Of a stretch of 64,000 nucleotides of DNA, positions 55,274 to 63,063 are shown piece after piece. The stretch spans positions 1-64,000 of the forward strand of contig CALSPG010000005.1 in NCBI GenBank assembly GCA_943788175.1, written 5' to 3'. How positions within the stretch are numbered: position 1 is the stretch's first letter; each line of letters opens with the position of its first letter. The notes under the pieces were generated by a model that saw nothing but the letters and a program-made list of their open reading frames with translations, was not told where the DNA came from and did not search any database. Source of the DNA: an uncultured bacterium. GTDB lineage: Bacteria > Fidelibacterota > Marinisomatia > Marinisomatales > UBA1611. Both the position numbers and the translations under genes were made by a program.

Positions 55274-56152
55274 ATGAAATCACAATTTGATTTTGGTACA
55301 ATTATAGGGTTGATAGCAGGGATAGTATGTATTTTTGTTACAATGATTTGGCCAGAAGTTGATCGCGGTGAGATGATTTTAACGACAGATGGTGGATGGC
55401 GATTTGAGCAGCTATCTTGGTTCTATCAACCTCAAGCTGTTTTTATTGTTCTTGGTGGTGTTATATCTGCTACTTTAGTTAATTATCCGATTAAAGCTGT
55501 CATTAATATGGGTAATGTTTTTAAAAATGTTATTTTGTCTGAAAAATTCGATTTTTCATCTACAATTGATAAAATTGTAGTTCTTGCTGAAAAAGCGCGA
55601 AAAGATGGTCTATTATCCTTAGAAAGCGACTTAAATGATATAGATAGTGTTTTTTTAAGAAACGGTGTTGAGTTAGCTATTAATGAAAGAGACACTAATA
55701 GATTAAGAACTTTTCTTACAATGGATTTAAATAATATATCAACTCGCCATGTTAGTGCACAGGAAATTATATTATACATGGCGGCTTACGCTCCGGCCTT
55801 TGGAATGCTTGGTACTGTATTAGGGTTAATTATTATGATGAATAAATTTCAAATGTCTGGAGAAACATCATCTGTTGATTTTAATGTTGCAGATCAATTT
55901 CAATCTCTTTTAGTCGGGATGGGTACAGCCTTGATTACCACTTTTTATGGCGTGTTTTTAGCGAATATGGTTTTTTTACCTTTAGGGGGGAAATTAAAAC
56001 GGAGATCTGAAAATGAAATAATGTTAAAAAATATAGTTTTAGAAGGCATTATAAGTATTCATGGGAGAGAGCATCCAGTTTTAATTAAAGAAAAATTGAT
56101 GACTTTTGTTGCTATGTCTGAAAGAAAAACTCTTGAAACCAAAAAAGAATAA
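55274..56152 (+). CDS. motA: MotA/PomA-type stator A subunit
   Basis: IVLGG, ARKDGLLSLE, APAFGMLGTVLGLI, ALITTFYG, LPLGGKL. Confidence 0.88.
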   Translation: MKSQFDFGTIIGLIAGIVCIFVTMIWPEVDRGEMILTTDGGWRFEQLSWFYQPQAVFIVLGGVISATLVNYPIKAVINMGNVFKNVILSEKFDFSSTIDKIVVLAEKARKDGLLSLESDLNDIDSVFLRNGVELAINERDTNRLRTFLTMDLNNISTRHVSAQEIILYMAAYAPAFGMLGTVLGLIIMMNKFQMSGETSSVDFNVADQFQSLLVGMGTALITTFYGVFLANMVFLPLGGKLKRRSENEIMLKNIVLEGIISIHGREHPVLIKEKLMTFVAMSERKTLETKKE

Positions 56153-56154
56153 TA

Positions 56155-56880
56155 TTGCAAAACCAGAAAATATCACAAGAGTTAGCAAGAGCTAAAACTA
56201 CAGCCTGGGCGTTAACATTTGCGGATCTAACAACCTTATTGCTAACCTTTTTTGTATTATTACTTGTAATCTTAAATGATGCTGAAGCTCATGTTGATCG
56301 ATTAGTGAATATTATTCTAGATGAAACTGAGAGAGAATTAAGAACACTTCAACAAAATAATTTAGTAGAAATCGAGAGAGTTACTAAAGGTATAAAAATT
56401 ACTCTTACTGGGTCTAAATTATTTAAATCTTTGTCTGCAGATTTAAATCCAGAAGCAGATCCAATATTAGTTCAAATTGGTGGACTGATTCGGACATCTA
56501 CATTAATGAATATATATAAACAAAAACGTTGGAAGCCACTTCTAAGCAGAATAAGTGCAGGGCAAGACACATTAAATATAGAAATAAGAGCAGAGGGGCA
56601 TACAGACGATAAACCAATACCTATGAACTCTAAATTTAGAAATAATTGGGAATTAAGTTCTGCTAGAGCTTTGAACTTAGTCCAAAGGTTGAGTGAACTT
56701 GCAGAAATGGATCAGCACTATTTTTCTGCACTTGGTTATGGTGAATTTCGTCCCAAAATCAGTTTACGTAATATTAAAAATAGAGCTGAAATAGAAGAAG
56801 CGAGGGCTCAAAACAGAAGAGTTGAAATATATTTTGATGCATTTATCAGGTCGAAAAATGAGAGTATTAAAAATCTTTAA
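56155..56880 (+). CDS. motB: MotB-type stator B subunit with OmpA-like peptidoglycan-binding domain
   Basis: WALTFADLTTLLLTFFVLL with the ion-binding Asp; EGHTDD, NWELSSARA, NRRVEI. TTG start. Confidence 0.88.
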   Translation: MQNQKISQELARAKTTAWALTFADLTTLLLTFFVLLLVILNDAEAHVDRLVNIILDETERELRTLQQNNLVEIERVTKGIKITLTGSKLFKSLSADLNPEADPILVQIGGLIRTSTLMNIYKQKRWKPLLSRISAGQDTLNIEIRAEGHTDDKPIPMNSKFRNNWELSSARALNLVQRLSELAEMDQHYFSALGYGEFRPKISLRNIKNRAEIEEARAQNRRVEIYFDAFIRSKNESIKNL

Positions 56881-58935
56881 AAAGAGCATAACGTGCTTTT
56901 TGCTTTTTTGTCTTTGTTCTCATTTTAATATTCAGGCTCAAATACAGAGTATCGTCACAACTAATAATCAAACTCAAGACTGGATTTTTGGTGATGGGCC
57001 AGAGCCAAAATGGGTTGTTGAGCTTTTACACGGTGCTTACCAAAATGTAAAAGAGGATAATAGTTTCATTTTAAAAGTCCCAATTGCGGGGTCGGGTATT
57101 AATTATTCTGCTTCTGTTGATGGAAATGCTGAAATAAAACAAGATGGTGATTACCTAATTATTACTCCAGAAAAAGATTATCATGGGACAATATTAGTTA
57201 ATCTTAATTTAGATATGAGTTTTATATTGAATGTTCAGTCTGTAAACGATAAGCCTTCTTTGTCCACCACAGATAATAAAACAATAAAAGAAGATGAGAT
57301 ATTTAGCCTTGAGTTATCTGCGCAAGATGTTGAAGGAGATGAATTAACATACGGGGCTTCCGCTGATAATGGAGCAACTGCTAAAATCATCAAAAATAAC
57401 TTAACCATTACACCTGAAAAAAATTACTATGGTCCTATAAATATTAATCTTGCTGTTTCTGATGGTAAGTCTACCGATGAATCTAGTTTTATATTAAATG
57501 TTGAACCGATAAACGATGCACCAGTTTTAGAATCTATTTTATCTAAAACTATGGAAAACAGAAATTATGTTGATCTTCTAATGTCTGGGTCAGATATTGA
57601 TGGTGATAAATTGACTTATTCGGTCACTGGGGGTGATAATGTCGACTTTGATGTAGAAAATAATAAAATAGTGGTAAAGCCTAAGAAAAACTATCGTGGA
57701 GCTACTGCAATCAATCTCACAACCTCAGATGGGAAAAGTAGTGTGGATACTAGTTTCACGCTTATTAATCCCCTGCCTGGTTTATCTGCCTTCGCTCCTC
57801 AATCAATGCTAGAAGATGAAATATTAACTATTGTTTTGAATACAAGGGATGTTGAATTAGACCCGTTTAGATATAGAGTAAGAAAAACTGAAAATGCAAA
57901 TATAGAGATTAATGACAATGAGTTAAGTATAATTCCAGATAAAGACTATTTTGGAGAGTTGATTTTAAACTTAAACATTTCAGATGGCGAAGACTCTACT
58001 GATTTCAGTTTTAATATTAATGTATTACCACAACCTGATTTCCCTATTGCTTATGCTGGAAATGATACAACAATAAGCAATGGCTGTAATTCTAGTTTGT
58101 TATTAGATGGAAGTAAGTCTTACGATGCGGATAATGATATAGCTAGTTATAAATGGACCTTACTAAGTGACAGTAGTACTATCCTTAATGGTAAAAAAGG
58201 GATATATAAATTCAAAAACTCTAAAAAAGATTTATATCAAAAGATTCTACTGACCGTGTCTGACAGTAAAGGGCTTAAAGCCTATGATACAATAAATGTA
58301 ACCATAATAAGCGATACCCCCCCCTTAGCAAATGCCGGAGATGATTTTATAGCACCATTTGATAAGTTTGTTAGGCTCGATGGCTCAAGGTCGGTTGATG
58401 ATGATAGCGAAATAATATATTTCTGGAGCATAGTATCTGGCGATGTATCTTTTAGTAAAATTGAGAGAATAAAAAGAGAACCTGTTTTCGAATACCCTTC
58501 AGAAATTACAAAGCCTAAGAATTTTATTGCATTATTAAAAGTTCAAGATGAAAATTCTTTTTGCTTCTCGGTTGATACCGTTCTTATAACGTGCTTGCCT
58601 AATGTTGATATGGCAGATAGTACTGTTAAATATGAGATTGTCAGAGCAAGTAAAAAAGATAATAGAGTATTTATTGATCTAAATGTGACAAACAAGCAAT
58701 TCTGGCCATTTGATTTTGCAGCGTTTACTTTGATTTCTGTAAAAAACGAAGATAATAAGCTTGGTCAAATTGACCCTTACAAAGGGAGAAATACGGTAAA
58801 ATATGGAATAGAGAACGAAGAAAAAGTTGGGGTAGAATTAGTTTATAATTTTGATTCTCCACCACAAGAGGTAAGTATCGTTTGTAAGTCAAATATGGCA
58901 TTAACTGCAGATACTGTATTATTCAAGCAAAGTTT

Positions 58936-58939
<4 letters not shown>
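56858..58939 (+). CDS. Exported protein with tandem cadherin/Ig-like (tandem-95) repeats and two PKD-like domains
   Basis: Signal peptide from ATG 56858. Repeats of EDE...DVEGDELTY...TPEKNYYG...VSDG...NVEPINDAP. PKD-like PIAYAGND...LDGSKSYDAD and PLANAGDD...LDGSRSVD. Confidence 0.85.
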
Positions 58940-61645: not shown

Positions 61646-63063
61646 ATGTCAATAAAAAATCTAGGTAAAGAATCGTTAATCTATGGTACTGGGCATGTGC
61701 TGGCCAGGTTAGTGACATTTTTTCTTTTACCTATTTACACTCACGTATTTACTCCTGAAGAGTACGGTGTCATTTCTCTCGCTTATGCTTTTATTGGTAT
61801 CGCTTTAATGATATATCGATATGGTATGGATACTGCATTAATGAAATATTCAGTGCAATTGAGCGACAATGAAAAAATAACGCATATTTCGACTATTTAT
61901 TTACTTCAATTATTTAGTTCTGCCGTTTTTTCAGGATTATTGTTTTTAATAAGAAATCATGTATCTGAAATTATTTTAGGCGTGGTAAAACCAGAATGGA
62001 TTATAATTTTATCAGGCATTCTTTTCTTGGATAATTTATGGAATCATCATGTTCTATTATTAAGAGCTGAAAACAAGCCCTTTCTGTATATCTTTTTTAG
62101 TCTTGGTAATGTTATTCTGACGATGGGTTTCAATATTTTATTTGTTATCAAATGGGGCATGGGTATAGAGGGCGTTTTAATTTCAAACTTAATGGCTTCT
62201 GGTTTTATTTTTATTTCTTCAATGCCAGTTGTGATTAAAAAAATAAAGCTACTCCAAATAAGATCAGAAGTAGTAAAAAATATTTTGAGCTTTGCGCTTC
62301 CATTTCTTCCTGCGGGTATTTTTACTATGATTATGGAATTATCTAATCGATATATGCTTGAATGGTTTGAGGGCACTTATGCCGTAGGTTTGTTTTCTGC
62401 TGGATACAAACTCGGAATATTTGGATTAATTATCGTTATGGGTTTAATATGGGCTGGACCCCATATTTTTTAAAACGAGTAAAAGAAAAAGATGCTAAAG
62501 TAGATTTTTCCTCAATAGCCTCTTTGTTTTTAGGGTTTTTAGGGTTTGTTGTCGTTCTGGTTTCTTTGTGGTCTTCAGAAATTGTTCGTTTTAATATTGG
62601 TACGTATCATTTGATAGGGAGCAATTATTGGGATTCAGAAAAAATTATTCCAATAGTTTTATTAGGGTACTTTTTTTTCGGGACTTACATAATTCAATTG
62701 CCTGGAGTTTATTCAAAAAAGATAACCAGGTGGGTACCAATTTTTAGAGCGATTGGGGCCATCACAAACATTTTCTTAAATATTCTTCTAATCCCTCAAT
62801 ATGGCATTGTTGGCTCTGCTTGTGCAACTGCAGTAGCTTTTTTATTAATGTCGTTATCAATATATGTAAAACTATATAAAATATATTTTGTTAGATATAA
62901 TTGGCTTGCACTTTGTTATCCGGTTTTTTTTATAGTACTTGACTTTTCTTTCTATTAATACTTTGAATATCGGTTAGCAATTACTGTTTCGTACTTGTTA
63001 GGATGGTATTATCTCGCATTAAATAATCTTGAGAGGTTAACAATTAAGAGCCTATTAAGTTGA
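61646..63063 (+). CDS. Oligosaccharide flippase (Wzx-like), two frameshifts
   Basis: SLIYG...LLPIYT...PEEYG, LIPQYGIVG. Spans ORFs 61646..62473 and 62449..62958 plus a tail to TGA 63063. Confidence 0.88.

Follow-up and report, generated by a model that had tools for sequence, protein, structure and literature searches.

The locus

The DNA considered here is a stretch of 64,000 nucleotides (nt), hereafter the window, from an uncultured Marinimicrobia bacterium (GTDB Fidelibacterota; Marinisomatia; Marinisomatales; UBA1611), deposited as GenBank assembly GCA_943788175.1, contig CALSPG010000005.1, positions 1 to 64,000; the genome amounts to 2.27 Mb in 12 contigs and is 92% complete. Within the window, three co-directional open reading frames (ORFs) occupy positions 55274-58939 of the forward strand and encode a MotA-like protein, a MotB-like protein and a secreted repeat protein (Table 1). 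The first two are named MotA1 and MotB1, as the same genome holds a second pair, MotA2 and MotB2, and the product of the third gene is also referred to as the partner. Read from its ATG at 56858, the third gene overlaps motB1 by 23 nt, while the mechanical start of its ORF is an upstream in-frame TTG at 56822.

Table 1. Window coordinates of the three genes and of the segments recognised in the third protein.
Feature	Position	Strand	Description
motA1	55274..56152	+	putative A subunit of a flagellar-type (TGI4-like) stator, 292 amino acids
motB1	56155..56880	+	putative B subunit, 241 amino acids; TTG start two bases past the motA1 stop
third gene	56858..58939	+	secreted multi-domain beta protein, 693 amino acids counted from ATG (MRVLKIF...)
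signal peptide MRVLKIFKKSITCFLLFCLCSHFNIQA, then Gln	56858..56941	+	read from sequence; helix at residues 2-25 in the model
N-terminal domain	56942..57244	+	no assigned family; conserved within the genus; low model confidence
three cadherin-like/Big_9 domains	57245..58033	+	conserved N-D-x-P linkers; Pfam Big_9, Cadherin_5, Cadherin_4; NCBIfam tandem-95 repeat
two PKD-like domains	58043..58582	+	K319L-like_PKD 2e-14, PKD_4 1e-11; strand blocks 404-484 and 504-579
C-terminal beta-sandwich	58601..58936	+	weakly DUF4352-like; predicted MotB1-binding module

MotA1 and MotB1

MotA1 matches the Pfam family MotA_ExbB (E-value 2e-23), and its best solved relatives among the sequences of the Protein Data Bank (PDB) are all flagellar, with matches from 1e-36 to 3e-13 that include MotA of Clostridium sporogenes (1e-36), Paenibacillus MotA1, Bacillus subtilis MotA, Vibrio PomA (4e-26) and the MotA proteins of Aquifex and Campylobacter. 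Residues 46-286 align to solved MotA/PomA, with four predicted transmembrane (TM) helices and a large cytoplasmic domain between TM2 and TM3, and an alignment to Escherichia coli MotA reveals that this domain lacks the E. coli-type fifth-helix (TGI5) insertion. In the motif ARKDGLLSLE, the Arg and the Glu align to R90 and E98 of E. coli MotA; the former is invariant in the alignment, and the latter is found in both MotA1 and MotA2. A protein homologue search returned, among its best 120 matches, near-identical marine sequences only. Two periplasmic elements set the protein apart. The insertion WPEVDRGEMILTTDGGWRFEQ is present in all three same-genus rows of alignment A1 and in none of the 19 others, one of which holds a different, shorter insertion at that position, and an extension of the TM3-TM4 loop occurs in 18 of 20 MotA1 rows, being shorter in two divergent copies and absent from MotA2. 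Thr residues at positions that are Na+-linked in PomA were discarded as a guide to the coupling ion, being non-discriminating for Na+ and H+ and also present in C. sporogenes MotA.

MotB1 matches the Pfam families MotB_plug (7e-9) and OmpA (3e-6), and its solved relatives among the PDB sequences are MotB, PomB and MotS. Asp24 lies in a conserved TM motif and aligns with the channel Asp region of C. sporogenes MotB, and the motifs GHTD, NW.LS..RA and NRRVEI are invariant in 41 MotB1 orthologues. The linker is about 44 residues shorter than that of C. sporogenes MotB and about 41 residues shorter than those of MotB2 and of the phylum's own flagellar MotB. In addition, every MotB1 carries an insertion of about 25 residues (about 114-138) in the OmpA-like domain, which is found neither in the phylum's flagellar MotB nor in MotB2. 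With respect to NCBIfam, the best matches of MotA1 are MotP, MotA and PomA, all under cut-off, the top one at 178 bits in comparison with 394 (MotP); MotB1 scores 97 bits for the MotB family (cut-off 259), and none of the equivalog cut-offs for MotA, MotP, PomA, MotB and MotS was reached, in each case by a wide margin.

The two proteins carry every sequence hallmark of a working stator, namely the channel Asp, the plug, a domain for binding the wall and the Arg/Glu pair of the FliG contact. An initial annotation, made from the letters of the window without database searches, had described a canonical stator pair and a third gene overlapping it by 23 nt, which the ORFs and Pfam confirm, and had named a MotB Asp with a peptidoglycan-binding domain, the retained Arg/Glu contacts to FliG, a very short MotB linker and extra periplasmic insertions in MotA. 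Each of these is borne out by the comparisons above, with the qualification that WPEVDRGEMILTTDGGWRFEQ is restricted to the genus and the TM3-TM4 extension is common to most MotA1.

The third protein and its linkage to motB1

The third protein exists in two forms. Lengths of 689-865 amino acids are found within the genus of the window only (long forms), and proteins of about 190 amino acids take their place in other genera (short forms). The protein of the window matches Pfam Big_9 (3e-25), Cadherin_5 (3e-21) and PKD (2e-14), and the signal peptide and the chain of cadherin-like and PKD-like domains that had been proposed at the outset were recovered by translation and Pfam. Its AlphaFold2 model is all-beta with seven domains and a mean predicted local distance difference test (pLDDT) of 65.7, the five central domains being of medium confidence and both ends of low confidence. 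The cadherin-like strand blocks span residues 141-216, 223-306 and 309-390, and the linker residues N130, D131 and P133, as well as N219, D220 and P222, are invariant in the long forms. Linkers of the N-D-x-P kind between cadherin-like domains suggest a calcium-stiffened rod, and with six domains ahead of the sandwich, at about 4 nm each, this rod would be roughly 25 nm long. The N-terminal domain has no Pfam match at E<=0.1 and shows many invariant columns among the seven long forms. A Gln after the signal-peptide cleavage site (window 56939-56944) is invariant in the long forms and the short orthologues (alignment A4), a residue typical of exported proteins of the Bacteroidota group, where it is cyclised to pyroglutamate.

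The short form is made up of a signal peptide followed by a small SH3-like domain of five strands and a beta-sandwich (AlphaFold2 pLDDT 88.8). SH3_3 was weakly matched by one of three short-form N-terminal domains (E 0.006), and DUF4352 (PF11611) by all seven short orthologues scanned, with E-values from 2e-6 to 0.05, one of them above the cut-off of 25.9 bits (28.6) and the remaining six under it; in the window's own protein, the C-terminal domain has no match to DUF4352 at E<=1. The closest folds to the short form are YjhA (3cfu, 1.8e-4) and MPT63 (1lmi). Matches to the archaellum stator proteins FlaF/FlaG (E about 3e-3) were set aside as generic beta-sandwich likeness. By BLASTP, only residues 590-693 of the window protein align, and they do so to the C-terminal half of the short forms. 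The Ig/PKD (immunoglobulin-like/PKD) chain is a genus-specific replacement of the small SH3-like domain, the last 110 or so residues alone being conserved. Its coincidence with the insertion WPEVDRGEMILTTDGGWRFEQ in MotA1 proves nothing, because both are derived traits shared within one lineage.

The linkage of this gene to motB1 was followed in 80 species loci, 71 of which could be evaluated for the gene after motB1. A partner gene, always carrying this C-terminal sandwich, stands directly after motB1 in 50 of the 71 (7 long and 43 short), at distances from -89 to +15 nt. A profile of the short form found one match each in 20 of 41 related genomes, always beside motA1B1 (20/20) and never elsewhere, and had no match in the eight genomes without MotA1 (0/8). 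Conservation of the three-gene order, which had been put forward as a check, is seen in these 50 of the 71 evaluable loci. The initial idea of a three-component unit holds in so far as the unit is real and the linkage to motB exclusive; a central place for the Ig/PKD rod in the machine is unsupported, the chain being genus-specific.

Predicted contact between MotB1 and the partner

For complex prediction, residues 42-241 of MotB1 and the C-terminal 112 residues of the partner were used with 41 orthologues each. An interaction prediction score from aligned errors (ipSAE) of 0.77 was obtained over three runs (0.77-0.78), in comparison with 0.00 for the best of three controls; the contacts agreed between runs to at least 95%, and the partner reached a pLDDT of 88. 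The mark of 0.77 is reached by 116 of 157 solved complexes and by 2 of 215 mismatched pairs, a scale to be taken as rough only, since self-made alignments were used. To our knowledge, no complex of the MotB1-partner kind has been solved, and for this reason it seems unlikely, in our own judgement, that the model was recalling a known structure. On the MotB1 side, the predicted contact involves residues 60-70, 100-123 and 183-184, includes a helix and overlaps part of the MotB1-specific insertion; among the residues of the partner, the most conserved ones (D38, F39, G55 and P59) take part in it. Complex prediction, which had been suggested together with the initial annotation, therefore yields a contact when run on the periplasmic part of MotB1 and the C-terminal domain of the partner, and the model supports docking of the C-terminal sandwich on the periplasmic domain of MotB1.

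A divergence test was carried out with MotB1 sequences from 33 partner-bearing and 21 partner-less loci, in which the 26 predicted contact positions were compared with the 174 other periplasmic positions. Within the partner-bearing lineages, the contact positions are as conserved as the others (3.00 vs 3.30, p=0.57), and among the partner-less sequences they are less conserved (2.20 vs 3.40, p=0.001). Between the two groups the contact positions diverge more, with a mean BLOSUM drop of 1.39 in comparison with 0.42 (Mann-Whitney p=4e-6). Gly110 of MotB1 is found in 26 of the 33 partner-bearing sequences and in none of the 21 partner-less ones, and position 70 is Tyr, Leu or Trp in all 33 of the former and polar in the latter group. 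The MotB1 tree calls for no fewer than 3-4 losses or gains of the partner.

A separate observation concerns the plug helix of MotB1, where the motif HIDRVIN (residues 44-52, window about 56284-56310) is nearly invariant with a partner and variable in the biggest of the partner-less clades. The columns that diverge most between the groups include positions 46, 48, 49 and 52, although these lie outside the predicted interface.

Distribution, second stator and flagellar genes

In the genome of the window, flagellin, FlhA and the rod protein (PF00669, PF00771, PF00460) gave no match, while the controls matched in four named flagellated genomes. A FliG-like gene is present, and the MotA_ExbB family counts only three genes, namely MotA1, MotA2 and one ExbB, the last lying elsewhere with ExbD, ExbD and TonB. 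On another contig (C7, locus L005:11149-19061), three TPR (tetratricopeptide repeat)/carboxypeptidase-regulatory-like genes are followed, in order, by MotA2, MotB2, a FliF-like gene and a FliG-like gene. The FliF-like protein has 603 amino acids and its match is confined to the C-terminal ring domain; the FliG-like protein keeps K264 and lacks the HPQ of the FliM-binding EHPQR motif, and three residues are deleted at the place of E. coli D288/D289, a pattern that fits a ring without a switch complex. This cluster is complete in eight of ten relatives' loci examined, the other two being one with MotA2-MotB2 only and one ending at a contig end. The description of the pair as an orphan, accordingly, does not hold at the level of the genome. 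The genome-wide search for flagellar and gld genes recommended with it had a divided outcome, with no match for flagellin, FlhA, rod protein or GldL/M and with FliG-like and FliF-like genes found.

Among 41 relatives, the MotA1 query found a match in 38, comprising, as judged from identity and location, 33 of MotA1 type (42-100% identical, the match in genome G029 containing an internal stop) and five of MotA2 type only (about 30% identical). MotA2-type genes accompany MotA1 in 31 of the 33, and the two exceptions are 81% and 71% complete. Neither paralogue occurs in G035 and G038, whose MotA_ExbB proteins are all of ExbB size, and no match to the query was found in G005, which is 63% complete. 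FliG_C was detected in 36 of the 41. FlhA was found in three of five relatives tested (G030, G036 and G039, of the same order; loci L120 and L122), each with a strong flagellar FliG, and because of these two features the three are probably flagellated. In G030 and G036, a MotAB pair lies inside the flagellar cluster, in addition to MotA1 and the MotA2 cluster; in G039, only a MotA2-type MotA and ExbB were seen. In a sample of the phylum, a MotA match was obtained in 97 of 121 genomes, with MotA1-like identities of 42-63% in several families. The streamlined genomes of about 1 Mb that form family f12 (G035 and ten others) had a MotA match in none of 11.

In the MotA tree, MotA1 forms a clade (90/75) beside the phylum's flagellar MotA (80/67, weak) and apart from MotA2. 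The deep order of the three groups is weakly supported (80/67; 72/38), and the tree is unrooted, E. coli MotA and the genome's own ExbB being on very long branches of about 10 changes per column. The phylogenetic placement that had been advised is thus obtained in part: the clade and its neighbour are recovered, the latter with weak support.

These results bear on whether the pair could be a spare or relic flagellar stator, which served true flagella only and is left over or retained for rare flagellated states. The neighbourhood of the phylum's own flagellar MotA in the tree agrees with this, as does the presence of probably flagellated members in the same order, two of them with MotA1. It is nevertheless distinctly improbable, since MotA1 is intact in 33 of 41 relatives, apart from the G029 copy with its stop, and a MotA match extends over most of the phylum sample in spite of the missing flagellin, FlhA and rod matches in the genome of the window. 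Moreover, the flagellar cluster contains a MotAB pair of its own in two of the three flagellated relatives, MotB1 has a specific insertion and a dedicated partner gene, and the pair appears in RNA libraries. Metatranscriptome contigs from two studies cover the genes, bridging motA-motB in both and motB and the third gene in one. One 2.8-kb contig of an RNA library starts 100 nt ahead of motA1 and reaches into the third gene, and in the second study the rhomboid-motA1 and motA1-motB1 junctions are spanned by short contigs. Within the third gene, runs X7 and X8 show bins that lack cover, which were given no weight, and the contigs as a whole are no more than consistent with transcription.

In three loci (L026, L069 and L098), another motA, divergent in sequence, and two motB-like genes come after the set motA1-motB1-partner, and in a further one (L038) two motB-like genes stand after motA1.

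Comparison with known motor systems

The closest counterparts are the flagellar TGI4 stators, such as those of C. sporogenes, B. subtilis MotAB, MotPS and Vibrio PomAB. Likeness is found in the adjacent A and B genes, in the full-length similarity of MotA1 (1e-36 to 4e-26), in the channel Asp, the plug, the OmpA-like domain and the Arg/Glu pair, and in the lack of the E. coli-type fifth helix. Unlike those stators, the present pair comes with no flagellum genes that could be found, misses the NCBIfam cut-offs, has a linker 41-44 residues shorter, and possesses the insertion of about 25 residues in MotB1, the extended TM3-TM4 loop in MotA1 and the dedicated partner gene. The features of MotA1B1 match the flagellar (FIT) group, including its four-helix kind, as characterised in the literature (PMC12505986).

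Periplasmic helpers of stators have precedents, including MotX/MotY and FliL. Another is MotC of Sinorhizobium meliloti, a secreted protein that is thought to bind periplasmic MotB, in a species whose MotB has an extra periplasmic insertion for which further contacts are proposed (PMC9541039). The resemblance to MotC thus lies in a secreted protein on the periplasmic MotB and in a MotB with an extra insertion. The present partner differs from MotC in that family searches gave no sequence similarity, in its architecture of an SH3-like domain (or a cadherin/PKD chain) with a DUF4352-like sandwich, and in a setting without a flagellum.

With respect to GldLM/PorLM, the likeness is that of a 5:2-type ion motor with an Ig-like chain able to cross the periplasm, given that GldM spans the periplasm with Ig-like domains. 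In GldM, however, the Ig domains are part of the B-type subunit, whereas here they belong to a separate protein modelled on a wall-anchored MotB; furthermore, MotA1 belongs to the MotA_ExbB family and has a large cytoplasmic domain, and no GldL/GldM profile matched. It was on such grounds that a motor for type IX secretion or gliding could be considered, with MotA1B1 in place of GldLM and the Ig chain as the counterpart of GldM, and the genome does hold 77 Por_Secre_tail matches and SprA. GldM was found in 0 of 121 phylum genomes and GldL gave no match, an absence that is unverified because no control genome matched either, and no true GldK was found, the best being a match of generic sulfatase-fold type with 43 bits in comparison with a cut-off of 350. 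The distribution of SprA decides largely against this explanation, which is very improbable: SprA is present in 39 of the 41 relatives and in all 27 of high quality, G035 and G038 among them, in which both MotA paralogues are missing, and also in each of five further genomes without MotA1. Because SprA occurs in relatives devoid of both paralogues, MotA1B1 cannot be the general type IX secretion motor of the order, and the initial suggestion that the pair energises such an export is unsupported. In addition, the Ig chain is confined to one genus, 21 of the 71 loci lack a partner, and the partner is modelled on the wall-anchored subunit and is not a type IX secretion substrate; it has no Por_Secre_tail, and none of the 77 genome matches falls at 58.6-58.9 kb of the window.

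Two further systems were rejected. For Zorya, the ZorA profiles gave at most 20 bits, on TM3-TM4 only of a 292-residue protein, ZorB gave 58 bits, and NCBIfam ZorA2 reached 16 bits in comparison with 700; the third protein had no PADLOC match. For ExbBD/TolQR, the ExbB profile gave 19.7 bits in comparison with 135, and the B subunit resembles MotB and bears an OmpA domain.

Genomic setting

Upstream of motA1 lie proS, recO and a rhomboid protease, as the initial annotation had read this housekeeping context, and downstream lie ftsB/DivIC and enolase on the opposite strand (Pfam assignments). All 20 relatives' loci keep the order proS-recO-rhomboid-motA1-motB1-[X]-ftsB-eno, in whole or in part. 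A scan for promoters and terminators gave sites not above those of shuffled sequence (40 vs 36.1 and 3 vs 3.4, respectively).

The vicinity of ftsB/DivIC, which the pair adjoins in the relatives and species loci examined, invites an explanation in terms of an envelope or division motor. Here, MotA1B1 and its partner would act in a Tol-Pal-like manner, ion flow holding or pulling the wall and the outer membrane, for instance at the septum, with no FliG-like rotor. MotB1 carries wall-binding motifs, the partner could reach the outer membrane, and no separate TolQR was seen, the genome's MotA_ExbB genes being limited to MotA1, MotA2 and the one ExbB with its ExbD, ExbD and TonB. Against this, ftsB is convergent on the other strand, so that gene order is shared and no operon is formed, no TolA-like or Pal-like partner was identified, and the FliG-contact Arg/Glu and the large cytoplasmic domain of MotA1 are flagellar rather than of the TolQ/ExbB kind. 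An envelope or division motor is thus regarded as unlikely, albeit worth keeping in mind.

Proposed function

With a probability of roughly 0.55, and hence somewhat better than even, the locus encodes a flagellar-type, MotA5MotB2-like ion motor unit with a periplasmic accessory protein, in a Marinimicrobia bacterium apparently without a flagellum. The third protein probably serves as a helper, docking to MotB on the outer side of the cell membrane, in line with the predicted complex. Since its peptidoglycan-binding motifs are kept, MotB1 is most likely stationary and MotA1 the turning component, as is the case in flagellar stators; the partner bound to MotB1 would then sit on the static side, which argues for anchoring, positioning or gating. 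The Ig protein is therefore most likely a static accessory of the stator rather than a torque shaft. The initial notion of an Ig rod that transmits force does not agree with the model, which puts the rod on MotB, the static wall-anchored subunit.

In such a unit, ions passing Asp24 of MotB1 would turn the MotA1 ring around the wall-fixed MotB1 dimer, and the accessory protein would assist in fixing or positioning the stator. Because the linker of MotB1 is very short, an adaptor providing additional reach is plausible. In most genera, fixing would be achieved through the small SH3-like domain; in the genus of the window, it would be achieved through six further beta domains, perhaps 25 nm in length and possibly reaching the outer membrane. 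More speculatively, torque might be delivered to the reduced FliF-like/FliG-like ring encoded with the second stator on contig C7, and the retained Arg/Glu pair, together with the co-occurrence of the genes, points to this FliG-like ring as a candidate target of MotA1.

Several points weigh against the reading of a flagellar-type motor unit with a docked helper. The score of 0.77 expresses the confidence of a model and is not a measurement. The partner-less lineages amount to 3-4 independent groups, one clade contributing 15 of the 21 sequences, and the significance of the divergence test is inflated by this shared ancestry. In 21 of the 71 evaluable loci there is no partner and motB1 adjoins ftsB; the pair can consequently perform its function, whatever that is, with no partner. 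The retained charged residues and the co-occurrence are the only grounds for coupling to the FliG-like ring, and it is MotA2B2 that adjoins the ring genes; the FliG-like protein has a deletion of three residues in the torque helix and no equivalents of D288/D289 of E. coli. At 92% completeness of the genome, absence of the flagellum is not proven. Finally, RNA libraries can hold DNA, and one of the contigs is 8.7 kb long.

A wider picture may be drawn, which is no more than tentative and in our view unlikely as it stands. It would comprise a non-flagellar rotary machine of the envelope, with a reduced FliF/FliG ring and two flagellar-type stators, MotA1B1 being held by a dedicated periplasmic adaptor that in this genus takes the form of a rod, probably calcium-stiffened and of sufficient length to connect the motor with the outer membrane. 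As the phylum is rich in type IX substrates and no GldKLM was found in it, secretion or the motion of surface proteins might be driven by such a machine in those lineages that possess it.

Novelty and significance

No description of this Marinimicrobia system was found in the literature, supplements being outside the scope of the search, so that gene tables of genome papers could list the genes. The passages searched in one source contain no mention of such cases (PMC12505986), and in another, which discusses the sorting-domain genes of SAR406, the term MotA does not occur (PMC5596340). The window contributes the genus-specific Ig/PKD form of the partner, and the present analysis the model of the MotB1-partner interface with its divergence test.

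Marinimicrobia (SAR406, Fidelibacterota) are among the commonest bacteria of the dark ocean and have few cultured members. A complete flagellar-type motor with a helper of its own, widely kept and apparently without a flagellum, suggests that flagellar stators are reused for another job, a point of relevance to the origin and diversification of the flagellar motor. The predicted contact between MotB and its partner represents a concrete claim that can be tested with purified domains, with no need of a culture.

Other features of the window

Further downstream, at 61646-62958, a polysaccharide-biosynthesis (flippase-like) gene looks split into ORFs of 275 and 169 amino acids, which could be due to a frameshift, an assembly error or a pseudogene. 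In relatives this gene is undivided, with 472-507 amino acids in most of the loci examined.

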